Source of the DNA: a virus
Strand: one strand, 5' to 3'
Virus record (IMG/VR): IMGVR_UViG_3300045391_001310
Coordinates: 1-45,642 of that record
Length of the DNA: 45,642 nucleotides
Shown here: piece after piece, positions 51 through 45,642 of the stretch
Layout: each line of letters starts with the position of its first letter
Position numbering within the stretch: the stretch's first letter is position 1
Made by a program: the position numbers and the translations under genes
The notes under the pieces: model-generated
Seen by the model: only the letters and a program-made list of their open reading frames with translations
What the model was told of the DNA's origin: nothing
Database searches by the model: none

Positions 51-500
51 CCGACGACATTTGTTTCTGGTACAAAAACATTTTATGATATTTTACATAT
101 AAGTAAATCAGACGATACAACAGGGAATATTGTTATAGCTAACTCAGCCTCAACAACTATTTCTCAACTTCCTCCAACGATAAGAACGGCTAGATATAAG
201 GTTATGAAATTAGGGTTAATTCCTGACGACGCATATTCTATGCGTGTACTTTATAAGAAGACAGTTAATAGATTGGTTAATGATAATGATTATCCTTTTA
301 TTTCGGCGGATGAATTTATAGTTACGCATTCTGTGGCTTATGGATTAATGCAAGAAAAAGAAACCGAAGGTCGTGCAGCTGCAATGTTTCAGAAAGCCTC
401 AGACGCTTTACAGGTTTTATTAAGAACACAGAATAATAGACTTGGGCCAGATTTTCAACATAAAATTACTAACGCATTTATGGATTCACACAGACGATGA
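1..500 (+). CDS. C-terminal part of the junction-spanning ORF that starts at 45136 (318 aa in total); putative head-tail adaptor / tail tubular A-like virion protein
   Basis: The frame with codons at 3, 6, ... is open from base 1. It is continuous with the frame of 45136..45642 across the 50-bp overlap. Its stop TGA (498-500) overlaps the ATG of the next gene. The function is guessed only from its position just upstream of the nozzle-like gene. Confidence 0.45.
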   Translation, partial: SKTILDYEDIIISTSTPTTFVSGTKTFYDILHISKSDDTTGNIVIANSASTTISQLPPTIRTARYKVMKLGLIPDDAYSMRVLYKKTVNRLVNDNDYPFISADEFIVTHSVAYGLMQEKETEGRAAAMFQKASDALQVLLRTQNNRLGPDFQHKITNAFMDSHRR

Positions 501-2101: not shown

Positions 2102-3366
2102 TGTTTAAAAAGTTTTATTTATCTTTAATTTTATTGTTTTTAACCCATAACGCCTGGGCTTTACACGCCGAGACTTATTTATTATACGGCGATACATCTA
2201 CTTTAACAGCACAGAATTTGAATGGTAATTTTAACAATATTAGAAATGTTTTAAATGGTGGTCTTGATAATACAAATGCTGATACAGCAAGAGGTTTTAG
2301 ATTTATAGAAATTGTTAGTTCTCTACCAGCAGCAGGAAATCAAGGTCGAACAGTATTTTTAACAGCAGATAACACTTTATATTTTGATACTGGATCTGCT
2401 TGGATTCCTGTTGTAACTATAAGTACAGCTGGGGTTCAAGGTGATATGATTTACCATAATGGAACTAATTGGACAGTTTTACATAAAGATACAAATGCTA
2501 CTAGATATGTAGCTAATACAGGAACAAGTAATAATCCACAATGGGATAAAGTAGATATTGTTCAGGGTGGAAAATGGTTAGGTCAAACAGCAGGGGATAT
2601 AATTTTCGCAAGTTCATCTTCTGTTGTTTCAAGACTTCCTATTGGACAAGAAAATCAAGCATTAATTGTAAGCTCTAGCGGTTTGCCATCTTGGGGGTTT
2701 GCTTCTACAGCTACAGTTTATTCTACAGCAGGAACATATTCATTTACACCACAAACAGGAATAGATAAGGTTTATGTGACTATGTGTGGTGGTGGTGGCG
2801 GTGGAGGTAGTGGAGAACCTAATAATGGCGGTGGTGGTGGAGGTGGTGCAGCTTCTCTTATTAAACATGAGCTTAAAGTTGCAACAGCTTCTTCTTATAC
2901 CGTAGTTGTTGGAGCAGGTGGGGCAGGTGGAGTTGGTGGCCCACATACAAATGGGTCTAATGGTGGTTCGAGTAGTTTTGCAGGAACAACATCCCCATCA
3001 TCTTATACGATAACGACTAATGGTGGTAGCGGTGGTGTTAGCGGATTTGGTTCTGGTGATGGTGGAGCTGGCGGAACTGGAAATACAAGTCTAGCTGGGG
3101 TTGGTAGAGCTGCTGGAGTCGCTTATGTTTATGCAGGTGGTGCTGGTGGAAATTATGGGGGTGGAGCAGGTGGAAGTGGAACTACACAAGAAGGTGGAGG
3201 CGGTGGGGCTTCTTATTTAGTTGCTGCAGGAGGGGTTGGTAGTACAGGAACAGGAACTCCAGCGTCTCCAGGGTTTTGTTCTGGCGGTGGTGGCGGTGGT
3301 GGTTCAGATGGATCTTCTGGTGCAGCTGGAGGAAGTGGATTAGTAATAATTGAATATTATAAATAA
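2101..3366 (+). CDS. Tail fibre-like protein with a C-terminal glycine-rich domain and an N-terminal signal peptide
   Basis: TAATG overlap with the upstream gene. The N-terminus is MFKKFYLSLILLFLTHNAWA. It has GD(M/I)IY..G..W..L-type fibre repeats. The last ~200 aa are dominated by GGGGGG / GAGGAGG runs and end in GLVIIEYYK. Confidence 0.55.
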   Translation: MFKKFYLSLILLFLTHNAWALHAETYLLYGDTSTLTAQNLNGNFNNIRNVLNGGLDNTNADTARGFRFIEIVSSLPAAGNQGRTVFLTADNTLYFDTGSAWIPVVTISTAGVQGDMIYHNGTNWTVLHKDTNATRYVANTGTSNNPQWDKVDIVQGGKWLGQTAGDIIFASSSSVVSRLPIGQENQALIVSSSGLPSWGFASTATVYSTAGTYSFTPQTGIDKVYVTMCGGGGGGGSGEPNNGGGGGGGAASLIKHELKVATASSYTVVVGAGGAGGVGGPHTNGSNGGSSSFAGTTSPSSYTITTNGGSGGVSGFGSGDGGAGGTGNTSLAGVGRAAGVAYVYAGGAGGNYGGGAGGSGTTQEGGGGGASYLVAAGGVGSTGTGTPASPGFCSGGGGGGGSDGSSGAAGGSGLVIIEYYK

Positions 3367-7930: not shown

Positions 7931-8214
7931 TGGCATTAGACTACGTCGGTAGAGCCCCAATTATAATTAATAAAACATTAACATTGGCTAATACTTGGTA
8001 TCAGGTAACTGCAGAGATTCGTGGCCCACGAAAATGGTTTTTAAAAGCACAGGAAGCGACCGACAATTCATTTGATTTGGCTTTTGCTGACGAACAGACT
8101 GAAATATTGACAAATTCTGGAATTGGATGGGCTTTTGATGGTTGTGAGATACCAAATATATGGTGTAGAAGCTCGACGGCTGGGACTGTTATAGAGCTTT
8201 GTTATTGGAACTAA
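7930..8214 (+). CDS. Hypothetical small protein
   Basis: A 94-aa ORF with TAATG coupling at both ends. Confidence 0.55.
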   Translation: MALDYVGRAPIIINKTLTLANTWYQVTAEIRGPRKWFLKAQEATDNSFDLAFADEQTEILTNSGIGWAFDGCEIPNIWCRSSTAGTVIELCYWN

Positions 8215-11200
8215 TGAAAAAATTTATTCTTTCCATTTACTTTATCTTAATTTCGACTTTATCTTTTGCTCAAGGATCTGGTCTTGGGACAATGGCAGTT
8301 GATAAAGCTTCTAAGATTAAGACAGATACATCTTCTTTTAATCATAATCTTTCTTCCTCAGATAATACGGTTCAAAAAGCTTTAGATACATTAGATAACA
8401 TGACTACAACAGGTGGTAGTGGAGCTTCTGCTATTACTGGTTTGACTGATGTTTCGACGGATTATACAAATACAAAAATATTAATAGCTGATGGAGATAA
8501 TTTTAATGGAGTCATACCTTCTGGTGATATAACAATTACTTCGACAGGAGTTACAGATATTGGAACATCAAAAGTTGGGAGTACGGAATTAATCTCAACC
8601 GCAGTAACGGCTGGGTCTTATACAACAGCAGATATTACTGTTGATTCTGACGGTAGAATTACATCGGCAGCTAATGGAGCAGCAGCAGGGTCTTCAACTG
8701 GCGGTTGGCAAGAAGAATATCCTATTGTTCATTTAATTAATGCTGGAGATAATGTTGGAATTGGCACAAGTACACCTGCACAACAATTAGAAATAACTAA
8801 AAATTTCAGACTTCCAGCTTCTACTTCAACTGTAGGTAATATTTATAAAGGTACATCATTATTTTTGAGTAATTTTGGTACAAATAATACATTTTTGGGA
8901 GTTGGGGCAGGCAATTTAACAGTCTCTGGGATAGCTAATATAAATATTGGTGATGGGGCTGGCGCTGCATTAACAAGTGGTGGGGATAATATATGTATCG
9001 GAACAGGTTCAAGTTTCCCAGCTTGTAATACGATGACTGATGGTGCTCAGAATACTTGTATTGGTGGTGGAGCGTGTAGTAGAAAAACATCCCAAACAAG
9101 TGATACTTGCGTTGGTCAAACAGCGTGTTCAAATAGCAATATAAATGATGGTGTTATCATCGGAAGAAATGCTCAAGTTGGGGTATCTACTCAAAGCAAT
9201 GGTAGTATTGTTATCGGAAGTGGTAGTGCTTCGGCTACAGGTACTGGGGCAATGTGTATTGGATATGGGTGTGTGGCAACAGCAGCCCATCAGGGATTGA
9301 TTGGAGCTGCTAATTCAACTGGAGTTATAACTGATTTGTATTTAGGAAATGGTGTAACCAATACAACGCCATCTTCTATCGTAGTTAATGCTTCTGGAGG
9401 TAGTGGTTCAAATGACAATGGGGCAAATTTATCAATAGCTGCAGGAAAAGCTACAGGAAATGCTATTGGTGGGTCAATAAATTTTCAAACATCAAATAAA
9501 GGTTCAAGTGGTTCAACTTTACAATCTTTAACTACAAAATTAAGCATTGCTCCTGATGGGCCAATTCAAGCAGCTTCTTCATTTACAGCTGCAGGGTATA
9601 TTACTTCTACAGCTAATGGATTTGTATTCCCAGACGCAACAATTCAAACTACAGCAGCTTCTTCAAGTCTTACAGGAATTACTGATGTAACAAATGCCAA
9701 TATTTTAGTTGCTAATGGAGTAAAGTTTCAATCAGTTGCTTTTGGTGGAGATGTAACAATAACAACGGCTGGTGCAACAAACGTCGGGAAAATTAATGGT
9801 GTTGCTTATAATGGAGATCCACTTACTCAATATGCTTTACTTGCTGGACGATCTGGTGGTCAAACAATTAATGGTGGTTTGACTGGAACAGACACATTAA
9901 CCCTTCAAGCCAATGCTGATTCTGCACCAAGAACAACAAGAATATCTACAGATATGTTAAGTGTATTTAATGGCACTTATACCTATCCAAGTGGTTCAGC
10001 AAGTAGTTTTGCTTCAATACTTTCTTCTCCTATAATTACAGGGATCGACGTTGTAAACCCATCAATATCTTCAATAACTGTTCAACCATCTTTTACTTAT
10101 ACAGTTGCACAAAATTGGGGATTAAGCCCCAGAAGTGGTTTAAATTTCGCTCCAACAATAAATAGCAATTTATCATCTGGTGGCACAGATTCAATGATAT
10201 TCCAAGGTGTGAACGGACAACCTAATTTTAATGGTACTGTTGGGAATAGATTTATTTCAAATCTTTGGGGTGTTGGTGGTGATCCAAGAATATTGGGGAG
10301 TTTGGGTGGGGCTATAACAGCTATTGATTTCAGAGCCAGAGGAAGCACAACATCTGGAACTCAAGTTACTAATTTTACTGCTTTTTATAATGATGCAATT
10401 ATAGCCTCTGGTTCTAATGTTACTAACTATACAGGGATTAAAATTACACCTTCATTAGCTGCTAGTTCAGTCACAAATTTTACAGCGTTAGACATTGACT
10501 CACAAACAGCTCCTACAGGAACGAATATAGCCATAAAACAATCTGGTGGTTTTATGACCAATCAATTACAGGGAAAACTAAAGGTTGGAGCGGTTTCAAC
10601 ACCAACAGAATCTTTGGATGTGTCTGGAAATATATTAACAAATGGATCTTTATCTGCTACATCAATGACATCAACTGGATCATTAACATTTAGTGGTGTA
10701 ACTTCAGATATATTGACAGGAACAAATGAACATCTTGCTTTAATGCCCAATGGTACAGGAAATGTTGGAATAGGTACGACTACGCCAGATCAAAAATTAA
10801 AAGTTGTTGGAACCATAGAATCTACAACCGGAGGATTTAAATTTCCTAATCAACAAACAATGGCAGCCCCAACGCTTACTGGATTATCAGATGTTGGAAG
10901 TGCTGCTATTACTGCTGCTAATGTATTGGTTGCAGATGGAGCTAAATATCAATCTGTCTCAATGAGTGGTGATATTACTATGAGTTCAGCAGGTGATACT
11001 CAGATTGGAGCAGATAAAGTCGGTTCCCCAGAAATTGTCTCTGATTCGGTTGGGTCAAGCGAAATAAAAAGTTCTGGAGTAATTGCTGCGCAATATACAT
11101 CAGCAACAGTGACTGTTGATGCTGACGGAAGAGTAACTAATGCAATGGCTGGTAGCCTTACAGGATTAACGGATGTATCGATTGCTGCGACGACGGGTTA

Positions 11201-11534
11201 TACCGTTGGAAGTATTTTGGTTGCAGATAGTACAAAATTTGTCAGCAACAGAACGACGATGACGGTAAGAACAGATACGGGAAATGTTGGTATCGGGATA
11301 ACTGCTCCCGCACAAGCTTTAGATGTTTCTGGATCAATCCAATTTACTGGCAGTTTATTAGGAACAAATACTAATTCATTAGGATGGACTGTTCAATCAG
11401 CAACTAATCAAGCTTGTAATACAACTTGTACTTCTGCTTGTGTCATAGGAATGAATACTGGTGTAAACCCAAATGCATTTTTAGCATGTTCAGATACAAC
11501 AACGGATTCTTGTCTTTGTGCAGGATCATCATAA
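8214..11534 (+). CDS. Large tail fibre (1106 aa) with a signal-peptide-like N-terminus, YadA-head-like repeats, LTGLTDV modules and a Cys-rich C-terminal tip
   Basis: The ATG at 8214 makes a TAATG overlap; the track start at 8199 is a TTG. The N-terminus is MKKFILSIYFILISTLSFA|QG. It has NVGIGT(S/T)TP..L motifs three times and an N.(C)IG..A repeat block. ITGLTDV...GRITSA modules are shared with 40623..42464. It ends NQACNTTCTSACV...CSDTTTDSCLCAGSS. Confidence 0.8.
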   Translation: MKKFILSIYFILISTLSFAQGSGLGTMAVDKASKIKTDTSSFNHNLSSSDNTVQKALDTLDNMTTTGGSGASAITGLTDVSTDYTNTKILIADGDNFNGVIPSGDITITSTGVTDIGTSKVGSTELISTAVTAGSYTTADITVDSDGRITSAANGAAAGSSTGGWQEEYPIVHLINAGDNVGIGTSTPAQQLEITKNFRLPASTSTVGNIYKGTSLFLSNFGTNNTFLGVGAGNLTVSGIANINIGDGAGAALTSGGDNICIGTGSSFPACNTMTDGAQNTCIGGGACSRKTSQTSDTCVGQTACSNSNINDGVIIGRNAQVGVSTQSNGSIVIGSGSASATGTGAMCIGYGCVATAAHQGLIGAANSTGVITDLYLGNGVTNTTPSSIVVNASGGSGSNDNGANLSIAAGKATGNAIGGSINFQTSNKGSSGSTLQSLTTKLSIAPDGPIQAASSFTAAGYITSTANGFVFPDATIQTTAASSSLTGITDVTNANILVANGVKFQSVAFGGDVTITTAGATNVGKINGVAYNGDPLTQYALLAGRSGGQTINGGLTGTDTLTLQANADSAPRTTRISTDMLSVFNGTYTYPSGSASSFASILSSPIITGIDVVNPSISSITVQPSFTYTVAQNWGLSPRSGLNFAPTINSNLSSGGTDSMIFQGVNGQPNFNGTVGNRFISNLWGVGGDPRILGSLGGAITAIDFRARGSTTSGTQVTNFTAFYNDAIIASGSNVTNYTGIKITPSLAASSVTNFTALDIDSQTAPTGTNIAIKQSGGFMTNQLQGKLKVGAVSTPTESLDVSGNILTNGSLSATSMTSTGSLTFSGVTSDILTGTNEHLALMPNGTGNVGIGTTTPDQKLKVVGTIESTTGGFKFPNQQTMAAPTLTGLSDVGSAAITAANVLVADGAKYQSVSMSGDITMSSAGDTQIGADKVGSPEIVSDSVGSSEIKSSGVIAAQYTSATVTVDADGRVTNAMAGSLTGLTDVSIAATTGYTVGSILVADSTKFVSNRTTMTVRTDTGNVGIGITAPAQALDVSGSIQFTGSLLGTNTNSLGWTVQSATNQACNTTCTSACVIGMNTGVNPNAFLACSDTTTDSCLCAGSS

Positions 11535-11542: not shown

Positions 11543-11950
11543 ATGAAAAAATTTTATTTATTAATAACCATTTTGTTGACCTCAACAATATGCTATTCAG
11601 ATGAACAACCAACAGTGGTTGATACTTCAATAACAAAATATTCTGATACAGAAATACAAATCACAAAAACTTGGTCAACGACAACAAAACACATTTCTTT
11701 AAAATCTCTATATACAACAAAAGACGTTTATGAAAAACAAATAGTTGATTTACAAAATAAAATAAATGAAACACAAAACAATATTCTCGCATTTTCTGGT
11801 CTTGAAGCATTTAAAGAAGATGAACAGAAATCAAAAGATGACCAGGATATTTATATAAAACAAATAGCACAAATACAAAAACAAAAAGATTCTTTGGATG
11901 AAATGATTAATAAAGCAATAGAAATTGGGGTTGTCCAGGGAGATTTATGA
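11543..11950 (+). CDS. Secreted coiled-coil protein (135 aa)
   Basis: An AAGGAG sits 5 nt upstream of the ATG at 11543, so the track N-extension from 11426 was rejected. The N-terminus is MKKFYLLITILLTSTICYS|DE, and the C-terminal half is K/E/Q-rich. Confidence 0.6.
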   Translation: MKKFYLLITILLTSTICYSDEQPTVVDTSITKYSDTEIQITKTWSTTTKHISLKSLYTTKDVYEKQIVDLQNKINETQNNILAFSGLEAFKEDEQKSKDDQDIYIKQIAQIQKQKDSLDEMINKAIEIGVVQGDL

Positions 11951-12240
11951 TATTTATATTAATTTTTTTATTAATTTGTTCAGATTGTTTTGCTTTTAAT
12001 TGTATAAGCACAGAAAATTATTATGAATGGAATAAACAAGAAAAAAGAATGGATAAAATAGAACGAAAAACTATTGCCAAGAATTTTTATAATTATAGAG
12101 AAGCAGAAAAGTTCGCAAAGATTAAAAACATCCCAATAGAAAATATAATGAAAGATAAAGATATAAAAATGTGGGTAGTTGTAGAAAATCCTTATGCAGA
12201 AGATTATGTTTGTGCTGGATACGAAGATACTAATTATTAA
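11947..12240 (+). CDS. Small protein with a hydrophobic, signal-like N-terminus
   Basis: ATGA overlap with the upstream gene. The N-terminus is MIFILIFLLICSDCFA|FN. Confidence 0.5.
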   Translation: MIFILIFLLICSDCFAFNCISTENYYEWNKQEKRMDKIERKTIAKNFYNYREAEKFAKIKNIPIENIMKDKDIKMWVVVENPYAEDYVCAGYEDTNY

Positions 12241-13119: not shown

Positions 13120-13359
13120 ATGGGAATAATCGATGGATTACTTTCTGGATTTCTTGGGCCATTAGGTAAAAAAGCAGCACAGTGGCTTCCAAGTAAAGAG
13201 GGATTAATGAGGAGAAAAATAGCTGATTATGAAAAACAACTTAAAGAATTACAAGCTGGGAAGTGGGATGCTCATGCTAGTTTTGAGCATAATCGTATTA
13301 ACGAGCTCTTGCGCCAAGAAAGAGTCAATCTCGATACCTACCTCTCCACCAACAGTTGA
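13120..13359 (+). CDS. Coiled-coil protein; i-spanin-like candidate (weak N-terminal hydrophobic segment)
   Basis: It starts MGIIDGLLSGFLGPLG and then has a charged helical region (RRKIADYEKQLKELQ...). It contains an out-of-frame lipoprotein ORF. Confidence 0.35.
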   Translation: MGIIDGLLSGFLGPLGKKAAQWLPSKEGLMRRKIADYEKQLKELQAGKWDAHASFEHNRINELLRQERVNLDTYLSTNS

Positions 13360-13435
13360 GTGGGGTAAAAAAGGTGAAGTACCTAAAAGCGTAATATATA
13401 ATTATGATTGGATTTGTTATCAGAAAGTTCCTTAA
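13229..13435 (+). CDS. o-spanin-like lipoprotein, overlapped (+1 frame) with 13120..13359
   Basis: The sequence MKNNLKNYKLGSGMLMLVLSIIVLTSS|CAKKE has a charged n-region, a hydrophobic core and an S-S-C lipobox-like site. The mature part is short and Pro-containing. It fills what would otherwise be a 90-nt gap. An alternative start is at 13268. Confidence 0.5.
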   Translation: MKNNLKNYKLGSGMLMLVLSIIVLTSSCAKKESISIPTSPPTVEWGKKGEVPKSVIYNYDWICYQKVP

Positions 13436-15257: not shown

Positions 15258-15887
15258 TTATCTTCCCCTTATTATTTTCTTAGCTGGTATACCAACATAA
15301 ACACCTGGCTCTTTTATATCTCTAATAACAACTGAATTAGCTCCAATAGTTACATTGCTACAAATATTTATATTATTGATGATTGTACAAGAAGCCCCAA
15401 GAAAACAAAAGTTACCAATCTTAACCCTACCAGCCAAAGTGCTACCAATAGAGATATGGTTGTGATCTCCAATCCTAACATCATGCTCTATTATAGCCCC
15501 AGTATTTATAATGTTATTGTTCCCGATAACAGCTCCAGCATTAATGTAAGCAAAAGCAAATATTTGATTGCTTATACCTAATTTAACCCTCTCTTCCACA
15601 ATAGCATTAGAATGTACAACATTCCCATCCAATAGATTCTTTTTATATCTATCAAACAAATCCCCTCTTTTAACATTATCCCCAATACTTAAAAATATCT
15701 TTTTCTTTTTTAAATCATTTGGCAATAAACCAATAATTTTGTGTCCAAATATTGCTTCATTGGGCTTAATGGCTTTGTCATAAATTCCTTTAATAATAAA
15801 TAAATTATCTTCAAGTAAATTAATCACACTACTGGTATGACTTCCAGCCCCAACAAGATAAACTTCTTTAAAAAATGATTGTCTCAT
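15258..15887 (-). CDS. NeuD/PglD-family sugar N/O-acetyltransferase (left-handed beta-helix)
   Basis: The N-terminal Rossmann-like segment is VYLVGAGSHTSSVINLL..IIKGIYD. It is followed by hexapeptide repeats (INAGAVIGNNNIINTGAIIEHDVRIGDHNHISIGSTLAGRVKIGNFCFLGASCTI...). Confidence 0.85.
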   Translation of the reverse strand: MRQSFFKEVYLVGAGSHTSSVINLLEDNLFIIKGIYDKAIKPNEAIFGHKIIGLLPNDLKKKKIFLSIGDNVKRGDLFDRYKKNLLDGNVVHSNAIVEERVKLGISNQIFAFAYINAGAVIGNNNIINTGAIIEHDVRIGDHNHISIGSTLAGRVKIGNFCFLGASCTIINNINICSNVTIGANSVVIRDIKEPGVYVGIPAKKIIRGR

Positions 15888-23374: not shown

Positions 23375-23396
23375 TGGTCGGTCTCCTTTTTTGTTG

Positions 23397-23540: not shown

Positions 23541-23577
23541 GAGTTATCCTTTCTTTGATTTCTAAAGGATTGTAACA

Positions 23578-24522: not shown

Positions 24523-24524
24523 TT

Positions 24525-35714: not shown

Positions 35715-36068
35715 ATGAAAAAAATAGTCTTAGTTATTTTAGCTCTTTTATCAACTGTTGGTATTGTTTATGCTCAAGTTTCCAATGGACGAAACCCTGC
35801 TATTAGTAATACTACCTATGAGGGTAAGACTGGTTTTACTCAAGTAGGAATACAGGGTTTGGATGTTCAAGGTAATCCTGGGTATTTAGAACTTGAAGGA
35901 GTTTCTACAAAATCAGGTACTAGATATACTTATTATCTTTGGGTAGATGAACTTGGAAAATTTCGTATAGCTTCTTATGCGGACGTTTCTGTTTATGCTA
36001 GTTTCCCAAATGGAGATTGGAACCGTGGTGGAATGCCTGTTGGAACAGTTGTTGGTGGTCAGAGCTAA
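35715..36068 (+). CDS. Secreted small protein encoded directly after the capsid gene
   Basis: It has an AAGGAG Shine-Dalgarno and the N-terminus MKKIVLVILALLSTVGIVYA|QV. Confidence 0.6.
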   Translation: MKKIVLVILALLSTVGIVYAQVSNGRNPAISNTTYEGKTGFTQVGIQGLDVQGNPGYLELEGVSTKSGTRYTYYLWVDELGKFRIASYADVSVYASFPNGDWNRGGMPVGTVVGGQS

Positions 36069-36109: not shown

Positions 36110-37315
36110 ATGAAAATATTAAAAGAAAAAGATAAAACATTTTGGCTTGTTTTTGGAGCACTTATTACTGTTCCATTATCTTCTTGTTTAAAGATCGGCC
36201 CAGATGTTTGGTATTCTCAGGTTATATGGTTATTGGGTGTTCTCTGTGTTGGTATAGCATTAGAGCTTTGGAAATTTAATAAATATTTGTCAATATTTAA
36301 TATCGTTTTAATTTATTCTACTTTAGTTACTGCAAATCAAGGGTTAAGGTCTATATTTTATTTGTTTATAACTAGCATTGCCTTTCTTGCTTCTTATAAG
36401 ATAAGTTTGTTTAATAAAAAGCAAAGAGAATATTTGATTTATGCGATATTAGCAGTATTTTGTTTACAAGCGTTGTGGGTCATTTTACAGAAATTTAATT
36501 TAGACCCAATATTTAGTTATATAGATAATCCTGCATTAGACAATACCGTAGGGTTTTCTGGTAGCAGAAACCAAATAGGTTTATTTTTTGCTATTACATC
36601 TCCATTGGTTATTGCATTAGCGCCAATATTATTGCCTTTTACTATTATAGGATTATGGTTTTCTGCAACGACATCAGCTTTTGTAGCTTTTATCGTAGCT
36701 GGATTTGTTTATACTTCATTTTATTTAAAGCATTTAAGAATAGGTTTTGTTCTAATGACTATTTTAGCTACTATTATTTTCTTTTTAAAATATGAAAACT
36801 TTTCAATAGAATCTTATAAAGAAAGATTTGGATTAATTAAACATAGCGTTAATGAGATTATGACTGGAAAAGCTTTAATGAAACAGGACATGACTGAGCT
36901 AGATGGTAAGAAAATAACTAAGTTTACTGAGATTACGACTAATTTTATGCAAGGATATGGATTAGGAAATTTTATTAGAGTATCTCCATATACTCAATGG
37001 AAGTTTATGGATATTTATAAGGAAGGTGGTAATCCTCAGCATAGATATGAGCATATGCACAATGATTATTTTGAAATATTTTATGAGACAGGATTGGCTG
37101 GTTTTGTTTCTATGTTGTTTTTATTGTGGAACTTTTTCTTAGAGTTTATTAAGTCTAACAAAACTAAGTTAATGATTATTTCTTTTTGTTGTATTTTAGC
37201 TCAGATGGTTTCTGCACTAGGTATTTATACTGTTTATACCGCTGTTTCTGGGGTTTTGTTTATAGTTCTATATGGGATATTTAAGGGGGAAGAGAGGGAT
37301 TTATTATGTCATTAG
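36110..37315 (+). CDS. O-antigen ligase family (WaaL / PglL / Wzy_C-type) polytopic membrane protein
   Basis: It has about 10 TM segments and a large loop that ends in the family signature EHMHNDYFEIFYETGLAGF (H-x-H-N....E.G..G). No obvious Shine-Dalgarno is present. Confidence 0.7.
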   Translation: MKILKEKDKTFWLVFGALITVPLSSCLKIGPDVWYSQVIWLLGVLCVGIALELWKFNKYLSIFNIVLIYSTLVTANQGLRSIFYLFITSIAFLASYKISLFNKKQREYLIYAILAVFCLQALWVILQKFNLDPIFSYIDNPALDNTVGFSGSRNQIGLFFAITSPLVIALAPILLPFTIIGLWFSATTSAFVAFIVAGFVYTSFYLKHLRIGFVLMTILATIIFFLKYENFSIESYKERFGLIKHSVNEIMTGKALMKQDMTELDGKKITKFTEITTNFMQGYGLGNFIRVSPYTQWKFMDIYKEGGNPQHRYEHMHNDYFEIFYETGLAGFVSMLFLLWNFFLEFIKSNKTKLMIISFCCILAQMVSALGIYTVYTAVSGVLFIVLYGIFKGEERDLLCH

Positions 37316-39823: not shown

Positions 39824-40636
39824 ATGGCAAACCCATGGGATTTTTCAACACCAGTATGGTTAACAGAATGTCACGACTTACCGACATTCGTTGGTTCAGA
39901 ATGTCCATGGAATACAAATTGCAACGATTATCCAGATTTTGTTGGATCGGCTTGTGGTGGCGGTTCAACATCATCTATAACTTTAGCCGAATTGGACAAT
40001 CCAGTCGAAGGATTGGTTACAGTATTTGCAACAGTCGTAGAAGTAACTTGTATTCAATATTACATAGATGGGATAGCAGTAGGTGGGCCATTTTATGATC
40101 CTTGGGATTTATTATTTGACACACATGAATATGAATCTGGAACGCATACAATATATGCTAAAAGTTGTGATGGTACGGTTACATCTAATACGATTAACGC
40201 TATTATCGTATCTACAGCAGTTTCTAGGCATACAGGTGATAAGCCACAGGATAAAGGACAGCAAAGAGAATGTATCGTTTGCGGATTTTGGTTTCCTGAG
40301 CGTGATTTTAGAATTCGTCAGAAAGATAAGCAATGGATTTGTAAGTGGGATTATGATGAAGTATCGGAGGATGATTCTCACGGTACAGTTGAGATTCATT
40401 TACTTAAAGGTCAGATGCGTAATTGCTCTATTTGTGATTTTTGGTTTGCTGAAAGAGATTATCGAATTCGTAAAGTTAGAAACAAATGGCTTTGTAAATG
40501 GTGTGAAGAATCTCAATATTATGATGATGACGAAGGTATCCCAGGAGACAATGTTGATTATTTACAACTCGAAGATGAAGATTCCTATTTGCTTGAAGAT
40601 GGAGGAAAGATAATCCTTGAAGATGACACTGAGTAA
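39824..40636 (+). CDS. Virion-module protein with an Ig-like domain, two duplicated CxxC..CKW zinc-ribbon-like units and an acidic tail
   Basis: The two units are RECIVCGFWFPERDFRIRQKDKQWICKW and RNCSICDFWFAERDYRIRKVRNKWLCKWC. The C-terminus is DYLQLEDEDSYLLEDGGKIILEDDTE. Confidence 0.55.
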   Translation: MANPWDFSTPVWLTECHDLPTFVGSECPWNTNCNDYPDFVGSACGGGSTSSITLAELDNPVEGLVTVFATVVEVTCIQYYIDGIAVGGPFYDPWDLLFDTHEYESGTHTIYAKSCDGTVTSNTINAIIVSTAVSRHTGDKPQDKGQQRECIVCGFWFPERDFRIRQKDKQWICKWDYDEVSEDDSHGTVEIHLLKGQMRNCSICDFWFAERDYRIRKVRNKWLCKWCEESQYYDDDEGIPGDNVDYLQLEDEDSYLLEDGGKIILEDDTE

Positions 40637-42464
40637 AATATTATTAATTTTATTATTAGCAACTAATGTATACGCTGCTGATCGAAAGATTACAGACTTA
40701 ACGGAAGATACTTCCCCAACATCGGATGACTTAGTAACAACAGTTAACGATCCTAGCGGTAGTCCTGCCAATAGAAAAGTTACTTTAGGGAATATATTTA
40801 CTTCTTTAGGAGTTACCGCAAGTGGGTATTCTGTAGTGGCTGATGAAGGAACTAATTTAACTGGTAGGTCGAAGATTAATTTTACTGGAAGTGGTGTGTC
40901 TTGTTCTGATAATTCTGGAAGCACAAGAACAGATTGTACTATTTCAAGTGGTGGAGCGACTACTATTACTGGGCTAACAGACGTTAGCACAACATATACT
41001 GATGGTAAAATATTAATTGCAAACGGATCTCAATTTAATGGTGTTTCAGTTTCTGGAGATATTACTATTACTAATAGCGGTGTAACAGATATTGGTTCAA
41101 GCAAGGTAGGTTCTACTGAAATTATATCCACCGCAGTAACAGCTGGGTCTTACACGAACTCTAATATTACAGTAGATGCAGACGGACGAATAACATCGGC
41201 TTCCAATGGTTCGGCTGGAAGCGGTGCTAGTTATATTACAGGATTAACCGATGTAACATCGACTTATGGGAATGGAAAAATATTAGTAGCAGACGTTGAT
41301 AACTTTAATGGTGTAGCAATGTCTGGTGATGTTACGATCAATAGTGCTGGAGTTACTGATGTTGGAACAGACAAAATAGGAACGACTGAGTTGTTATCTA
41401 CACAAGTCACTCCTGGATCGTATGGTTCTGCAGGTATTACAGTTGACGGCGATGGTCGTATTACTAACGCAATGGCTGGTAGTTTGACTGGTTTAACAGA
41501 TGTTGGGTCTGCTACGATAACATCTGGGAGAGTCCTTATTGCTGACGGAACGAAATTTCAGAGTGTTGGTATAAGTGGGGATGTAACTGTAACCAGCGCT
41601 GGAGTAGTTGATATAGGCACAGATAAAGTAGGTTCATTAGAGCTTTTAGCAACTCCAGTAGTTTCTGGTCAATATACAGCAGCTAATATTATTGTTGACG
41701 CAGACGGAAGAATAACGAATGCAGCGGTTAGCTCTTTAACTGGTTTGAGTGATATAGGAACAACAATAAATAAAACAGCTGGTAACATATTAATTGCCGA
41801 TGGGACTAAATTTCAAAGCGTGGCTATAGGCGGTGACATAACGATTACTTCCGCAGGGGCAACTGACATAGGAACGTCTAAAGTCGGGTCAACTGAGATT
41901 ATTTCAACAGCGGTAACTACTGGTTCATATACTAATACTAATATAACTGTAGATGGAGATGGTAGAATTACAACAGCTGCAAATGGAACGGATAATGGGG
42001 CTACGAGTTTAACTGGTCTTTCGGATGTAGGCAGTGCAACTATTACGGCTGGTAGAATTTTAGTGGCTGATGGAACAAAATTCCAATCTGTCGCTGTAAG
42101 TGGGAACGTAGCTTTGACATCGGCTGGGGTTGGGACTTTCTCAAGAACAATAGGAACTACTATATTATCACCTTCAGCCTCGACAAGTTACGCAAGTGTA
42201 AAATTAGCTAATAGCTCTACAGTGAGTAATTGCGAATGTTATCAAATGGGGGGGACTAATGCGGTATTAACTTTAAAACAATGCAACGGTGCTCAAAATG
42301 CTTGTGCCAATATTACAAATGCCACAACTTGCACTTCTTCTTCTACAACAATGACATTATCTGGGGCAGGTTCTTTAACTGGTGGTAATGATTTACAATA
42401 TTTAACAGGCTCATTTAGTGGTACACCAACACAGTTAAGATGGAGTTGTAAAAACACAGAATGA
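40623..42464 (+). CDS. Tail fibre (613 aa) built from tandem ~82-90-aa LTGLTDV...GRIT modules, with a signal-peptide-like N-terminus and a Cys-containing C-terminal knob
   Basis: The ATG is at 40623 (the track start at 40617 is a TTG). The N-terminus is MTLSKILLILLLATNVYA|AD. It has five full repeat units plus one partial one. Confidence 0.8.
   Translation: MTLSKILLILLLATNVYAADRKITDLTEDTSPTSDDLVTTVNDPSGSPANRKVTLGNIFTSLGVTASGYSVVADEGTNLTGRSKINFTGSGVSCSDNSGSTRTDCTISSGGATTITGLTDVSTTYTDGKILIANGSQFNGVSVSGDITITNSGVTDIGSSKVGSTEIISTAVTAGSYTNSNITVDADGRITSASNGSAGSGASYITGLTDVTSTYGNGKILVADVDNFNGVAMSGDVTINSAGVTDVGTDKIGTTELLSTQVTPGSYGSAGITVDGDGRITNAMAGSLTGLTDVGSATITSGRVLIADGTKFQSVGISGDVTVTSAGVVDIGTDKVGSLELLATPVVSGQYTAANIIVDADGRITNAAVSSLTGLSDIGTTINKTAGNILIADGTKFQSVAIGGDITITSAGATDIGTSKVGSTEIISTAVTTGSYTNTNITVDGDGRITTAANGTDNGATSLTGLSDVGSATITAGRILVADGTKFQSVAVSGNVALTSAGVGTFSRTIGTTILSPSASTSYASVKLANSSTVSNCECYQMGGTNAVLTLKQCNGAQNACANITNATTCTSSSTTMTLSGAGSLTGGNDLQYLTGSFSGTPTQLRWSCKNTE
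40965..42140 (+). repeat. In-frame tandem repeat array (about 5.5 units, period 82-90 codons) inside the fibre gene
   Basis: Units start at (I/L)TGL(T/S)D(V/I), at about residues 117, 207, 289, 374 and 464 of the track translation. A homologous unit occurs at 8433-8694 and at ~10870-11250 in the 1106-aa fibre. Confidence 0.8.
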
Positions 42465-42982
42465 GATACATATTATTAACTACTACTTTACTACTAATAT
42501 CTACTAAATTAGTATTTGCAGATAAAGTATATATTTTTATAGATAAGGTTGGAGTGGTTGATGTTGGTCAGGAAAAAGGACAGACATCTATTGGGGATAT
42601 TATACAGGTAGTTCCGTATAGTCCCCAATATGAACCAACTCAAGCAGAAAAAGATAGATGTAAGATATTAGTAACAGACTTAACTATGGACGAGATAGAT
42701 ACTTTAAGAAAACCTAAAACGCATACAGAAATATTACAAAAACAAATTACATTAGATAGTGCTGTATATGATTCTTTTAAATCTGATGCAATATCTAAAG
42801 ATAATGCAGTAGTAATAAATGAAAAAGATAATGGAGCGACTAAGACATTAACTTATCAATTTGATACAGAAGTACAAGATAAACCAAGAGAATTTAGTAT
42901 AGATTTGAAATCTTTTGATAAACAACCAGTTTCAGAGGTAAAAAGTGAAGAAGTTATTAATAATATTATTATTAAGCCTTAG
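42461..42982 (+). CDS. Secreted hypothetical protein (173 aa)
   Basis: ATGA overlap with the upstream gene. The N-terminus is MRYILLTTTLLLISTKLVFA|DK. Confidence 0.6.
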   Translation: MRYILLTTTLLLISTKLVFADKVYIFIDKVGVVDVGQEKGQTSIGDIIQVVPYSPQYEPTQAEKDRCKILVTDLTMDEIDTLRKPKTHTEILQKQITLDSAVYDSFKSDAISKDNAVVINEKDNGATKTLTYQFDTEVQDKPREFSIDLKSFDKQPVSEVKSEEVINNIIIKP

Positions 42983-44162
42983 CGTTATATCTAACTCTTA
43001 TTCGGCTACAGAGTTTGTTTGTACAGTTAACAAAACTGGGGAAGATTATAATACTATTGCTACTTGGGAAACAGCTATTCAATCTGATTTAACTTCAGCA
43101 GCAACTAAGGTTTTTTCTCATAGTGCTATCACAGGAACAATAGCCGATGGTTCGACAGTTACTGGTACAACATCTTTAGCAACAGGAACTGTTACTCATG
43201 CTACAGCCACCCAGATAATGATTAAAAATATTACTGGAACATTTCAGAGTGGGGAAATTATTTATCAAACAGTTGGTGTTAATTTTACAACAATTAATGA
43301 CGCAGGAGATAGTGTTATTGCCGTTTTAGAAACCTATGATGACGACGGAGCATTATCAGAAAATACAATAGATATTAACGGATGGACAACAAGCTCTACA
43401 AATTATATTAATATAAGAGCTCCCTCTGGGGAAAGACATAATGGTACTTTAAGAGCTGGAACAGCAGGATTGGGTTTTAGATTAACTTGTACAGTAGGAA
43501 ATACTTATTGTATTAAAAGCAGTGTAAATAATGCTAGATTTTCTTGGGCTCAAGTTTATATGGATGAAACTAATGATTTTGGTCAACTTGCCCTAGCAGG
43601 ATTTAGTCAGATCGATCATAATATTGTGGCTGGGAACAACACACATTTATCAAGTGGAGTAAGTCAAGAAAATTTTTCTAGCAGTTTAATTTATAATAAT
43701 ATTATTTATGATTTTAAAGCTGTTGCAGGAAATTCACATTGTATAAGAACCGATAACGTATCCGTGAGTATTTTTAATAACACTATGTATAATTGCGAAG
43801 ATGGACTTCATCCAATCGGTCACGGAGGAACTTCGGTTACAGCTAAAAATAATTTATCATATGGTAATACGGGTTTAGATTATTATACGGCTGGTGGTGG
43901 ATATACAACAACTTCTAAAAATATTTCGGAAGATACCAGTTCTCCAGATACATCTTATAGAAGTAAAACAATAACATTTGCTAATGCAGCTGGAAGAGAT
44001 TTCCATTTAGCAAGCACAGACACAGATGCGATAGATGCTGGTGACGATTTATCAGCAACTTTTACAGATGATATTGATGGAGTTACAAGGATTGTACCTT
44101 GGGATATTGGCGCAGATGAATATGTTGCCACATCAACAACAACTATGATGGATTTTATATAA
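42945..44162 (+). CDS. Right-handed parallel beta-helix protein (depolymerase / tailspike-like) with a signal peptide
   Basis: The GTG start is preceded by GAGGT. The N-terminus is MKKLLIILLLSLSVISNSYS|AT. It has N-N-x-I/M repeats (NNIIYDF, FNNTMYNC, AKNNLSYGN) and the C-terminal DFHLAS.DTDAIDAGDDL...DIDG..R....WDIGADEY. Confidence 0.6.
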   Translation: MKKLLIILLLSLSVISNSYSATEFVCTVNKTGEDYNTIATWETAIQSDLTSAATKVFSHSAITGTIADGSTVTGTTSLATGTVTHATATQIMIKNITGTFQSGEIIYQTVGVNFTTINDAGDSVIAVLETYDDDGALSENTIDINGWTTSSTNYINIRAPSGERHNGTLRAGTAGLGFRLTCTVGNTYCIKSSVNNARFSWAQVYMDETNDFGQLALAGFSQIDHNIVAGNNTHLSSGVSQENFSSSLIYNNIIYDFKAVAGNSHCIRTDNVSVSIFNNTMYNCEDGLHPIGHGGTSVTAKNNLSYGNTGLDYYTAGGGYTTTSKNISEDTSSPDTSYRSKTITFANAAGRDFHLASTDTDAIDAGDDLSATFTDDIDGVTRIVPWDIGADEYVATSTTTMMDFI

Positions 44163-44341
44163 TGGGAAAATTACCTTACTACGCAAGAGGGAAAAAGATT
44201 TTAGATGATATTGATGGTTCTGAGAACTATGAAAGAGATTCAAGAATGTACAAACAAAGAGGACTTAATGTCCATAAAACTAATTTAGATTTTTTAACAG
44301 ATGAGGCTAGAGAAGCCCAAATACAGAGGAGAGTAAGATGA
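44162..44341 (+). CDS. Small basic protein (59 aa), not in the track
   Basis: Sequence MGKLPYYARGKKILDDIDGSENYERDSRMYKQRG... It has a TAATG overlap upstream and an ATGA overlap downstream. Confidence 0.4.
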   Translation: MGKLPYYARGKKILDDIDGSENYERDSRMYKQRGLNVHKTNLDFLTDEAREAQIQRRVR

Positions 44342-44715
44342 AGAAGTTTTTAGTCGTGGTTGGATTAATATTAATTGCAATGCCTGTATATGCTCAAAGT
44401 CGTGGGCCATTAACAAATGTTTACGCCAGCATTGCTTCGGTAGCAGCGAATAGTAATAAAACATTTACTTTTCCATTTCAATCCAGAGATGTTTATATCC
44501 TAAATGATTCTGGGCAAAAGATATGCGTATCTCCCAAAGGAGAAACTATTGCTATTGACGTACCTACAGGATATTGTACCGTACCAACAGGAAATATTTT
44601 TCAAATGGCTACAGGAACACAGGTAGCATTGTATGATTTAGTTACAGATGCAGTTTCTGTAAGAAATACTGGAGCAGCTGCAGCTAGTCCAGTTAGTGTA
44701 ATTGTGGGGTATTAA
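44338..44715 (+). CDS. Secreted small beta-rich protein (125 aa)
   Basis: The N-terminus is MKKFLVVVGLILIAMPVYA|QS. Confidence 0.6.
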   Translation: MKKFLVVVGLILIAMPVYAQSRGPLTNVYASIASVAANSNKTFTFPFQSRDVYILNDSGQKICVSPKGETIAIDVPTGYCTVPTGNIFQMATGTQVALYDLVTDAVSVRNTGAAAASPVSVIVGY

Positions 44716-44942: not shown

Positions 44943-45136
44943 TGCCTATCCCTATTGCAGAAATATTTAGACCTAATTTTGAAATATCTGAGAGTTTATC
45001 TTCAGATTTGTCAGATAAGGAGCCTGGGAACAAATTTAGAGCAATAATTAATTATGAGGTTATTGAAAAAACAAAAAGTTTTGTAATTTTAAGAATAAAT
45101 CATGTTCAATTATTGAACACAAAAAGGAAATACTAA
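44942..45136 (+). CDS. Hypothetical small protein (64 aa)
   Basis: TAATG coupling to its neighbours. Confidence 0.5.
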   Translation: MPIPIAEIFRPNFEISESLSSDLSDKEPGNKFRAIINYEVIEKTKSFVILRINHVQLLNTKRKY

Positions 45137-45642
45137 TGCTTAGTTTTCTTAATCTTTATACAGAAGTTGGAAGATTATTACAAAGAGTTGGGGATACAGA
45201 TTATGCAACAAAGATAAAAGATTGGGTAAATTTTTCTCATACTACATTAGCTAATGCTTATGATTATTGGAATGAATTAGAATCTATTCATAATTTTACT
45301 ACGGAAGATGGAGTTGAAAATTATTATATGCCAATATGGTTTGATAAACCTTTGAGAGTTTATGACTTATCAAACAATAGAAAATTAAAACTTATTACAG
45401 AAGAAGAATATTTTGATGCAAATGTTTCTAATATTTCTCAGGGTAATACTGCAGCTCCTATTCATGCAAGAATATATGGTTATAAAGGTGTTAATTCGAA
45501 TATAAGTTCATCTGGAACAAATGTTAAGGTTAAAAGTACAAGTGCAAGTGATACGGCTGGAGTAACAGTAAGGGTTGAGGGGTATACAGATTCATCAAAA
45601 ACTATTTTAGATTATGAGGATATAATTATTTCGACATCAACT
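45136..45642 (+). CDS. N-terminal part of the junction-spanning 318-aa ORF (continues at base 51 of the window and ends at 500)
   Basis: The ATG at 45136 overlaps the upstream TAA. The frame stays open to the window end and is in phase with 1..500 once the 50-bp duplicate is removed. Confidence 0.8.
   Translation, partial: MLSFLNLYTEVGRLLQRVGDTDYATKIKDWVNFSHTTLANAYDYWNELESIHNFTTEDGVENYYMPIWFDKPLRVYDLSNNRKLKLITEEEYFDANVSNISQGNTAAPIHARIYGYKGVNSNISSSGTNVKVKSTSASDTAGVTVRVEGYTDSSKTILDYEDIIISTST
45593..45642. repeat. Second copy of the 50-bp terminal overlap
   Basis: Identical to bases 1-50. Confidence 0.95.

Follow-up and report, generated by a model that had tools for sequence, protein, structure and literature searches.

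The window analysed here, IMG/VR virus record IMGVR_UViG_3300045391_001310 over its full length of 45,642 nucleotides, is a complete 45.6-kb circular genome of an uncultured podovirus. Its late genes include a series of proteins that start with a Sec-type leader (Table 1). Ten late proteins carry such a leader, including four of the five ORFs in the interval 40623-44715 and the tail nozzle encoded at 497..2101. A membrane ligase gene of the PglL/WaaL type lies beside the capsid gene.

Table 1. Features of the window; a slash marks the predicted cleavage site
Position	Strand	Product	Leader	Observations
40623..42464	+	613-aa fibre protein	MTLSKILLILLLATNVYA/AD	Five tandem repeats of about 84-90 aa; C-terminal domain with 8 Cys; PHROG hits of unknown function; 31% identity to a Synechococcus phage S-RIP1 protein; accessory gene, absent from close relatives (no orthologue in clade loci)
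42461..42982	+	173-aa protein	MRYILLTTTLLLISTKLVFA/DK	Start overlaps the fibre stop codon; no family match; inferred, from position only, to be a fibre assembly helper (chaperone) in the same compartment as the fibre
42945..44162	+	405-aa protein, GTG start	MKKLLIILLLSLSVISNSYS/AT	Possible right-handed beta-helix; C-terminal ...DIGADEY motif resembles choice-of-anchor Q (NCBIfam choice_anch_Q, E=0.0017, below cut-off); PHROG 358, E=1.6e-4; no PDB sequence match
44162..44341		59-aa ORF	None
44338..44715	+	125-aa core-clade protein	MKKFLVVVGLILIAMPVYA/QS	Leader in all orthologues; mature part predicted as a small jelly-roll-like beta sandwich of unknown role (AlphaFold pLDDT 87; only generic fold matches)
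45136..45642	+	5' part of the 318-aa adaptor (SU10_adaptor)	None	Runs across the circular junction and continues at 51..500; 11 of 11 orthologues lack a leader
51..500	+	3' part of the adaptor	None
497..2101	+	534-aa tail nozzle/hub (P22 gp10-like)	MKKLLIIALLLFSSKAYA/QE	AlphaFold pLDDT 92; top 29 Foldseek PDB hits are podovirus nozzles, best E=1.9e-24, TM 0.72-0.75
2101..3366	+	421-aa tail fibre (Gly_rich_2)	MFKKFYLSLILLFLTHNAWA/LH	Pfam E=1.1e-17; PHROG tail families; N-terminal domain conserved in the clade, C-terminus variable; orthologue leaders mostly end ...YA/GT
8214..11534	+	1106-aa Ser/Thr-rich protein	MKKFILSIYFILISTLSFA/QG	One segment resembles the Bdellovibrio fibre protein Bd2133 (PDB 8ond_A, E=9.5e-7); leader-bearing proteins at the same position in the phage loci L082 and L083
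11543..11950	+	135-aa protein	MKKFYLLITILLTSTICYS/DE	Remainder looks coiled-coil by eye
11947..12240	+	97-aa protein	MIFILIFLLICSDCFA/FN	Weaker leader-like N-terminus (score 4.37, charge 0; no positive n-region)
13229..13435	+	68-aa lipoprotein-like ORF	…LTSSC/AKK	Overlaps 13120..13359 in another frame; resembles an outer-membrane spanin (inferred from sequence), which would imply a host with two membranes
15258..15887	-	NeuD/PglB/VioB-family sugar acetyltransferase		NCBIfam TIGR03570, 177.9 bits, above cut-off; Pfam PglD_N plus Hexapep; context gene related to glycan metabolism
35715..36068	+	117-aa core-clade protein directly after the capsid gene	MKKIVLVILALLSTVGIVYA/QV	Leader found in 15 of 17 orthologues (the other two are ORFs called with a long upstream extension that masks the N-terminus); A20 and Q21 nearly invariant; no PDB or family match
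36110..37315	+	401-aa multi-pass membrane protein, WaaL/PglL (Wzy_C) ligase superfamily	None; hydrophobic N-terminus is the first transmembrane helix	Pfam Wzy_C E=5.5e-7, stronger in relatives; conserved HxHND..E motif and Arg; PDB profile hits to an oligosaccharyltransferase (9rmk_A, E=1.1e-13) and WaaL (7tpg, E=8.5e-10); in all 13 clade loci that cover the position

Leaders in the late module

The original prediction described a run of late genes in 40623-44715 that all encode signal-peptide-bearing proteins, and listed eight N-termini from this run and from elsewhere in the genome. This observation is confirmed, and it is larger than first described: all eight N-termini are present in the sequence at the starts given for them. 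Some details differ. The interval holds five ORFs rather than four, and one of the five has no leader. Of the eight listed sites only three (8214, 35715 and 44338) expose Gln at +1 instead of the four that were claimed; the fourth Gln site is that of the nozzle, which had not been listed among the eight N-termini. The fibre label given to the 40623 product is supported by its tandem repeats, whereas the description of the 42945 product as beta-helix depolymerase-like rests only on the sub-threshold choice-of-anchor-Q match and a weak PHROG hit. The nozzle, which is the most telling case, and the neighbouring ligase gene had both been missed.

To compare the leaders with chance expectation, we used a rule-based predictor of our own that evaluates n-region charge, the h-region and the -3/-1 rule, and that accepted OmpA, MalE, PhoA and Bla and rejected LacZ. 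It identified 8 strong hits among the 60 genes of the window compared to a mean of 0.17 (maximum 2) in 300 shuffles, and all hits lie in the late (+ strand) module. By contrast, 2 of 893 genes were flagged in phage loci that share only a distant capsid protein, and three cultured Bacteroidota phages had 1-2 hits per genome, which were mostly lipoprotein-like and none of which was on a large structural protein. The predictor is crude and gave low-score false positives in ORFs in non-coding frames (8 of 37 at any score), and in principle hydrophobic N-termini could arise from AT-rich sequence or wrongly chosen start codons. However, at the strong threshold only one non-chosen ORF was flagged, and this is the plausible spanin lipoprotein at 13229. 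Moreover, the leaders are conserved across more than 100 independent contigs, and no downstream start is available because the mature parts begin with Gln. We therefore regard an origin by chance or annotation artefact as very unlikely and as effectively refuted by the conservation among orthologues.

Conservation and distribution of the leaders

The 497..2101 product is identified as the tail nozzle by its predicted structure, the Foldseek matches of which include Pa223, VP1, P22 gp10, Sf6, SU10 and T7 gp12, and by its position after the SU10_adaptor gene. All 120 nozzle homologues examined (at least 49% identical) carry a leader. Among the 119 that were aligned, +1 is Gln in 103 (87%), and in those 103 sequences -1 is A/S/C/G in 96%, -3 is A/V/L/C/S in 96%, and -2 is mostly F/Y. 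Identity is 0.29 in the leader compared to 0.56 in the mature part. This is the signature expected of a cleavage site under selection and not of a plain hydrophobic anchor. No conserved internal start codon that would give a leaderless nozzle is visible in an alignment of nine orthologues. Absence of the leaders from homologues had been named beforehand as an outcome that would refute the original prediction; instead, leaders are present in every orthologue of five protein families; in the 35715 family our predictor found the leader in 15 of 17 orthologues, the N-terminus of the other two being masked.

The original prediction offered two readings, i.e. that receptor-binding proteins mature outside the cytoplasm and join particles late, or that the N-termini are membrane or assembly anchors. 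This interpretation is partly supported, in that the conserved signal peptidase I site favors cleavage and hence the first reading, although the choice between the two remains an inference from sequence. In a version of the second reading, the N-termini act as membrane tethers or timing devices that hold tail proteins at the inner membrane, uncleaved or cleaved only at lysis, so that tails do not assemble or fire prematurely, and there is no soluble periplasmic stage. The n-region and h-region architecture would also insert as a type II signal anchor, and the paradox of an exported nozzle is softened if the proteins stay membrane-bound close to the heads. However, a signal anchor with a positive n-region still places the bulk of the protein in the periplasm, the conserved small residues at -1 and -3 and Gln at +1 are not needed for an anchor, and the h-regions are short (about 9-15 residues) as in cleaved signals. 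We consider this reading unlikely.

Alternatively, the leaders could be cytoplasmic propeptides unrelated to Sec that are removed by a phage or host protease, or are kept in the virion as a hydrophobic assembly or membrane-penetration element. Capsid proteins flagged as having signal peptides in Porphyromonas gingivalis phages were attributed to cleavage by the prohead protease (PMC10367356), and AlphaFold models the leader as a separate N-terminal helix. On the other hand, the same n/h/c architecture with an AxA/Q site recurs on unrelated proteins (nozzle, fibres and small beta-sandwich proteins), which is the signature of host signal peptidase I and not of a shared phage-protease site, and no prohead protease was identified in the window. 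This possibility therefore appears remote.

The leader is a derived trait. More distant nozzle homologues start at the mature N-terminus, and about 130 of 149 cluster representatives of the wider nozzle family have no leader. Nozzle and fibre leaders appear or disappear together: leader-bearing nozzles in the window clade and in the phage loci L085, L086, L087 and L090 all have leader-bearing fibres next to them, whereas the leaderless nozzles in L081, L088 and L089 sit in loci with no signal peptides at all. The L085 fibre aligns to the leaderless MW202524 fibre directly after its leader. Conversely, the capsid, portal and adaptor, the capsid-neighbour protein 34214, and ejection-type proteins including the SLT-domain protein lack leaders. 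Not every external protein follows the rule, as three fibre-like proteins in the same cassette (37381, 38475 and 39824) have no leader.

A further possibility is that the exported pool serves a non-virion purpose, such as masking or destroying receptors, loosening capsule or envelope from within, or blocking superinfection, and that virions are built from the fraction of precursor that escapes export. Phage-encoded secreted proteins that obey the Q rule have been proposed to modify the cell surface in P. gingivalis prophages (PMC10367356), the fibre and possible beta-helix proteins are plausible surface-glycan binders, and a surface-glycan ligase is co-encoded. This does not explain a leader on the nozzle, which has no obvious role outside the virion, nor why nozzle and fibre leaders co-vary. 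Reliance on export failure for an essential virion part in more than 100 genomes seems unlikely, and no leaderless second copy exists. We regard this reading as unlikely.

Proposed route of tail assembly and comparison with known systems

Combining these data, we suggest that the leaders are genuine Sec/signal peptidase I signal peptides placed on the distal, externally exposed parts of a podovirus tail, i.e. on the nozzle, the fibre that follows it, extra fibre or spike proteins and their likely helper, and on a few small core proteins, whereas the leaderless capsid, portal, adaptor and ejection proteins stay cytoplasmic. In this model, the leader-bearing proteins would be exported across the inner membrane, cleaved by host signal peptidase I at an A-x-A/Q type site, probably cyclised at the new N-terminal Gln as in Bacteroidota, and folded in the periplasm. 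DNA-filled, adaptor-capped heads would meet them only when the holin breaches the inner membrane, so that the tail is completed at or after that point. Our analysis establishes the leaders, their conservation, the identity of the nozzle and the clean split between leader-bearing and leaderless proteins; export, cleavage, Gln cyclisation and the timing of head-tail joining are inferred from these. The data thus imply, but do not prove, that the outer tail is made outside the cytoplasm and joined to the head late, which has not been described for tailed phages, and we consider this model about as likely as not. In P22-type phages the nozzle is added in the cytoplasm and heads lacking it lose DNA, and an assembly route after permeabilisation has no known precedent. 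Moreover, no enrichment of Cys or of the Bacteroidota O-glycosylation motif was found in the leader set, so the benefit of export is unexplained. With respect to the host, the Gln rule, which is documented for signal peptidase I substrates of Bacteroidetes (PMC5837995), points to Bacteroidota, but heavy use of Shine-Dalgarno sites (37 of 60 genes) conflicts with the SD-less translation of Bacteroidia (PMC7797042, PMC9976891, and the three cultured control phages). Both features are real and point in different directions, and the original prediction was right to treat the Gln sites as only a weak hint.

The nozzle shares its fold and its gene position directly after the adaptor with the podovirus nozzle/hub proteins P22 gp10, Sf6 gp8, SU10 nozzle, T7 gp12, Pa223 and VP1. 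The solved examples, such as P22 gp10 and T7 gp12, are cytoplasmic proteins that are not known to be made with a leader, whereas this clade adds an 18-38-residue Sec-type leader with a conserved cleavage site. In the Q-rule proteins of P. gingivalis prophages (Matrishin et al. 2023, PMC10367356), predicted signal peptidase I cleavage likewise exposes Gln; however, those are five proteins of unknown function proposed to modify the host surface, while here the leaders sit on identified tail parts, number about ten per genome and are conserved across a large clade.

The 36110 product has the HxHND..E motif of PglL/WaaL (Wzy_C) glycan ligases, and related phages carry glycosyltransferase cassettes at the same locus. 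Known virion glycosylation in phages, as in mycobacteriophages, uses cytoplasmic glycosyltransferases; a periplasmic ligase acting on exported virion proteins has not been described, and the target here could be LPS or protein. The Bdellovibrio mosaic adhesive trimer fibres such as Bd2133 (PDB 8ond), which a segment of the 1106-aa protein matches over only about 80 residues, are phage-tail-fibre-like proteins that a cell exports to its surface, which would show that such fibres can fold outside the cytoplasm, but they are cellular adhesins and not parts of a virion.

Exported phage lysis proteins, i.e. SAR or Sec endolysins, spanins and the T4 antiholin RI, are also late proteins that use the host Sec pathway (PMC7312051, PMC8385771), but none of those is a virion component, and typical phage genomes have 0-2 such proteins (PMC5723332), as in our control phages. 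The coat proteins g3p and g8p of filamentous (Ff) phages are virion proteins made as precursors with Sec/YidC-dependent leaders and processed by host leader peptidase before assembly (see also PMC8310372). Filamentous phages, however, assemble by extrusion through the envelope without lysis and have no capsid, portal or tail, whereas here the genome is packaged into a cytoplasmic head by a terminase and a spanin-like lysis gene is present.

Genome context and occurrence of the leaders

The first and last 50 bases of the window are identical and it is therefore a complete circular genome of 45,592 bp with a G+C content of about 34% (see the table of features). A DNA search against 50,697 GenBank phage records returned no relative, and the capsid and terminase relatives in these records are at most 41% identical; we therefore conclude that it is an uncultured short-tailed phage. 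A search for related loci with the 697-aa SLT-domain protein recovered no relatives, and PADLOC gave no defence-system matches.

Features of the genome and of related loci
Feature	Coordinates	Strand	Remarks
Terminal overlap	1-50 and 45593-45642		Identical 50 bp
Late genes	26193 round to 14953	+	
Early genes	15258 to 25807	-	
Adaptor	45136 through 500		SU10 type; runs across the junction; no leader
Nozzle, 534 aa	497-2101	+	Leader; directly after the adaptor gene
Fibre, 421 aa	2101		Leader; Gly_rich_2
Putative ejection protein	3801-4649	+	No leader; likely packaged in the head
Protein likely packaged in the head	4659		No leader
SLT-domain protein	5837-7930		No leader; typical of ejected internal proteins
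Leader protein	8214		
Leader protein	11543		
Protein with weaker leader	11947		
Lysis region	12255-14953	+	Transmembrane proteins
Spanin-like lipoprotein ORF	13229-13435		Overlaps 13120-13359; carries a lipobox
Cys-rich membrane protein	14468-14953		In the lysis region
C-5 cytosine DNA methylase	23578-24540	-	In the early region
Large terminase	26971		
HNH endonuclease	28399-28767	+	Next to the terminase gene
GroES/Cpn10-like co-chaperonin	28866-29276	+	Between the terminase and portal genes; Pfam Cpn10 E=4.3e-8, N-terminal part only
Portal	29683		No leader
Major capsid protein	34797		No leader
117-aa protein	35715		Leader; after the capsid gene
Wzy_C-family membrane protein	36110-37315		Hydrophobic first helix
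GLUG-motif protein	37381-38475	+	No leader
GLUG-motif protein	38475-39821	+	No leader
270-aa protein	39824-40636	+	No leader; two embedded copies of the CxxC-gene motif
Fibre, 613 aa	40623		Leader
405-aa protein	42945-44162		Leader; GTG start
59-aa protein	44162-44341	+	No leader; cysteines lost
125-aa protein	44338		Leader
CxxC gene, clade locus L082	8030-8206		58-60 aa in relatives
CxxC gene, clade locus L083	8065-8247		58-60 aa in relatives
Glycosyltransferase/methyltransferase cassette, L081 (MW202524)	1052-9883		Between capsid and adaptor genes
Glycosyltransferase/methyltransferase cassette, L089	2536-7867		Between capsid and adaptor genes
Glycosyltransferase/methyltransferase cassette, L085	69-4635		Between capsid and adaptor genes

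The observation in the original prediction, that a run of late genes in 40623-44715 and four further genes encode proteins with signal peptides, holds: every N-terminus it listed is present. The interval contains five ORFs, four of which carry leaders, i.e. the 613-aa fibre, the 173-aa protein, the 405-aa protein and the 125-aa protein. Elsewhere, leaders occur at 2101, 8214, 11543 and 35715 as predicted; the leader at 497 (MKKLLIIALLLFSSKAYA, followed by QE) had been missed, and there is a weaker one at 11947. The hydrophobic start of the protein at 36110 is the first helix of a multi-pass membrane protein and not a signal peptide.

To assess whether the leaders could have arisen by chance, we used a rule-based predictor of our own (charge, hydrophobic core and the -3/-1 rule), which recognised four E. 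coli signals and rejected LacZ. At a strict threshold it identified 8 of 60 genes in the window, all in the late module, compared to 0.17 expected from shuffled proteins. By comparison, it identified one of 37 out-of-frame ORFs, itself a plausible spanin lipoprotein, 2 of 893 genes in 62 phage loci that share only a distant capsid protein, and 1-2 genes in each of three cultured Bacteroidota phages, mostly lipoprotein-like and none on large structural proteins. We consider an artefact very improbable. Nine of the ten window leaders have a positively charged n-region and all have the hydrophobic h-region. None of the ten has a lipobox with Cys at +1, the only one being that of the spanin-like ORF, and the n-regions are MKK, MRK or MFKK without the S/T-R-R-x-F-L-K motif of twin-arginine signals; lipoprotein and Tat signals are rejected on these grounds. 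Pfam searches gave no hit to type IX secretion C-terminal domains in any leader protein.

Conservation of the cleavage site and identity of the proteins

The capsid protein recovered 18 IMG/VR loci with closely related capsid proteins (61-83% identical). In these, five protein families carry a leader in their orthologues: the 117-aa protein after the capsid gene, the 125-aa protein, the 534-aa protein, the N-terminal domain of the 421-aa fibre, and the hydrophobic first helix of the membrane protein. For the 117-aa family the predictor found the leader in 15 of 17 orthologues, the other two being ORFs called with a long upstream extension. The adaptor (11 of 11) and several other late proteins never carry one. 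A database search with the 534-aa protein returned 211 homologues, and all 120 examined (at least 49% identical) have a leader. In an alignment of 119 of these, 103 (87%) have Gln in the +1 column; among those 103, position -1 is Ala, Ser, Cys or Gly in 96% (A70/S18/C6/G5/P4), position -3 is Ala, Val, Leu, Cys or Ser in 96% (A39/V19/L15/C14/S12), and position -2 is mostly Phe or Tyr. The same pattern of small residues holds in the 35715 and 44338 families. The nozzle leaders average 21 residues and are only 29% identical pairwise, compared to 56% for the mature part. Thus, the sequence drifts while the cleavage-site rule is kept, which is what a functional signal-peptidase-I site looks like and is not required of a simple membrane anchor; tethering at the membrane without release is an unlikely alternative in our view.

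The key result concerns the 534-aa protein. Its AlphaFold model is confident (pLDDT 92), and its best 29 matches among solved structures are all tail nozzle or hub proteins of short-tailed phages with the beta-propeller-based nozzle fold (Pa223, VP1, P22 gp10, Sf6, SU10, T7 gp12 and others; E down to 1.9e-24, TM 0.72-0.75). The gene sits directly after the adaptor gene, as nozzles do. Its best PHROG match is a family labelled 'amidase' (phrog_5107) and GenBank homologues are labelled 'phage stabilization protein'; given the nozzle fold, the amidase label looks like an annotation error. The 421-aa fibre that follows has tail-fibre PHROG matches, a conserved N-terminus and a variable C-terminus. 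Within 40623-44715, the 613-aa protein has five tandem repeats of 84-90 residues and a Cys-rich end. The 173-aa gene overlaps the fibre's stop codon, which is the usual place for a fibre assembly helper, a role that we infer from position. For the 405-aa protein, which has no homologues from which to build an alignment, there are only weak signs of a beta-helix, i.e. a sub-threshold choice_anch_Q match and PHROG 358 without a Pfam Beta_helix hit. The 125-aa protein is predicted to fold as a small beta sandwich with only generic jelly-roll or cupin-like matches. Sequence-only searches of the PDB with the nozzle, the 405-aa protein and the 117-aa family gave nothing useful. The three larger leader genes of this interval are accessory and absent from close relatives, whereas the 125-aa gene is core. 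Relatives have a 58-60-aa CxxC gene between the ligase and the 125-aa gene, and the copy in the window (44162) has lost the cysteines.

The leader is a derived add-on. A profile search of 1.84 billion cluster representatives found 6,676 nozzle relatives; among the best 149 representatives only the window clade and a few divergent lineages have leaders, and about 130 begin directly with the mature domain. The nearest GenBank homologue, in a Manatee Spring podovirus (29% identical), aligns from residue 20 of the window protein and has no leader, and none of the 20 late-region genes examined in that phage has a signal peptide. We also examined the genomic context of seven lineages, each represented by a locus. 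Loci with a leader-bearing nozzle (L085, L086, L087 and L090, plus the window clade) have leaders on the adjacent fibre and on the following small proteins, whereas loci with a leaderless nozzle (L081, L088 and L089) have none among 20, 6 and 23 genes, respectively. The L085 fibre aligns to the leaderless Manatee Spring fibre starting just after its own leader (61% identity over 28 residues). Parts that must bind each other thus gain or lose the leader together, as expected if the leader determines the compartment.

Within the virion, the capsid, portal, adaptor and the proteins likely packaged in the head have no leader, whereas the nozzle and what hangs on it do. This is the split predicted if the proximal half is built in the cytoplasm and the distal half outside it. 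There are apparent exceptions to the rule that external proteins carry a leader: the two adjacent, paralogous GLUG-motif proteins (37381 and 38475), which are probably beta-helical, have nearly identical N-termini (MATHITNAT.LQNMNLN) and are absent from close relatives, and the 270-aa protein at 39824. The putative ejection protein at 3801 starts with MGC(G/F/L)xxK followed by a Pro-rich stretch in four of the six clade orthologues compared, while more distant relatives start with MGS. In the lysis region no recognisable endolysin is present, and the only muralytic domain is the SLT domain at the end of 5837-7930.

Neighbouring glycan genes and the host

Directly after the capsid gene and the small leader protein, all 13 clade loci that cover the position encode a multi-pass membrane protein of the Wzy_C family with an HxHND..E motif and an Arg; H315, H317, N318, E322 and R239 are invariant in 14 orthologues. 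Pfam Wzy_C scores 29.9 bits in the window, below the 31.7 cut-off, but is a firm hit in relatives. The profile matches a solved oligosaccharyltransferase (9rmk_A, E=1.1e-13) and the O-antigen ligase WaaL (7tpg, E=8.5e-10), a margin that is not decisive, and from sequence alone the target could be LPS or exported phage proteins. The window also encodes a NeuD/PglB/VioB-type sugar acetyltransferase. Leaderless relatives carry glycosyltransferase and methyltransferase cassettes at the same position. So does one leader-bearing relative, L085, which rules out that such cassettes and leaders are mutually exclusive. Glycan chemistry is therefore a recurring theme between the head and tail genes of this group. 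However, neither Cys content nor the Bacteroidota O-glycosylation motif D[ST][AILVMT] is enriched in the leader set.

Gln after the cleavage site is the Q rule of Bacteroidetes, for which the species average is 71%; it is below 9% for most Chlorobi, the other comparison phyla are significantly lower, and Ignavibacterium album reaches 77% (PMC5837995). Of all 77 strong leaders in the clade, 31 have Gln at the crude predicted site and 40 of 77 within two residues, compared to a Gln background of 3.7%; in the window the count is 4 of 10. Five of the seven named relatives of the acetyltransferase are Bacteroidota, and the spanin-like lipoprotein implies a host with an outer membrane. In contrast, 37 of 60 genes (62%) have a Shine-Dalgarno core upstream, with a background of 9%, whereas three cultured Bacteroidota phages show 2-6 per genome (4-10%) and Bacteroidia ribosomes do not use such sites (PMC7797042, PMC9976891). 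A scan of 185,579 bacterial and archaeal species genomes with the nozzle alignment returned one mis-binned lake metagenome contig and no prophage. Contigs of this phage clade are deposited in metagenome-assembled genomes labelled Candidatus Obscuribacterales, Euryarchaeota and Methanobacteriota, which are almost certainly binning errors and not host evidence. A lineage that follows the Q rule but lies outside class Bacteroidia would be one way to reconcile the two signals, with Ignavibacteria as the candidate.

A possible assembly pathway and comparison with known systems

Combining these data, we suggest that the leader proteins are exported by Sec, cleaved by signal peptidase I, probably N-terminally cyclised and folded in the periplasm, and that they meet adaptor-capped heads once the holin opens the inner membrane. 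While the analysis demonstrates the leaders and their cleavage-site conservation, the nozzle identity, the co-variation of nozzle and fibre leaders and the partition within the virion, each step of this pathway, including translocation and cleavage, is inferred. We regard the model as about as likely as not. The interpretation in the original prediction, that receptor-binding proteins mature outside the cytoplasm and join particles late or, alternatively, that the N-termini are membrane or assembly anchors, is partly supported, with the former favored. The main difficulty is that in P22-type phages the nozzle is needed to keep DNA in the head, and the adaptor of this clade would therefore have to hold the DNA alone for a time. 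Alternatively, the exported proteins may have a non-virion role with virions built from precursor that escapes export, which we consider slightly less likely than tethering, or the leaders may be Sec-independent propeptides, which is improbable.

In a more far-reaching version of the model, which we consider unlikely but not excluded, this clade has split virion assembly between two compartments: heads, adaptor and ejection proteins would be built in the cytoplasm, and the nozzle, fibres and small accessory proteins would be exported in order to be matured in the periplasm, with an N-terminal pyroglutamate and glycosylation by the phage's own PglL/WaaL-type ligase. Leaderless relatives would achieve glycosylation instead with the cytoplasmic glycosyltransferase cassettes at the same locus, and the tail would dock onto heads only after the holin opens the inner membrane.

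Tailed-phage morphogenesis is taught as a wholly cytoplasmic process. An essential tail hub with a conserved export-and-cleavage signal in more than 100 genomes would mean that head-tail joining can be postponed until the inner membrane is breached, and that external virion proteins can gain periplasmic chemistry such as pyroglutamate, disulfides and glycans. This would change how lysis timing is understood in such phages and would suggest a natural route to displaying periplasm-folded or glycosylated proteins on tailed phages. Moreover, the residue after the cleavage site would become a usable host-lineage marker for uncultured phages. The data also flag a problem for annotation pipelines, i.e. 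signal peptides on structural proteins and nozzle proteins labelled 'amidase' or 'stabilization protein'.

Full-text literature searches for Sec leaders on a tailed-phage nozzle or its fibres found no report, although absence from the texts searched is not proof of absence. Signal peptides on virion proteins are normal in filamentous phages, exported lysis proteins are normal in tailed phages, and Q-rule signal peptides have been noted on unknown prophage proteins in P. gingivalis (PMC10367356). What differs here is that the leaders lie on a tailed-phage nozzle and its fibres, with a substantial chance that they reflect an undescribed assembly route.
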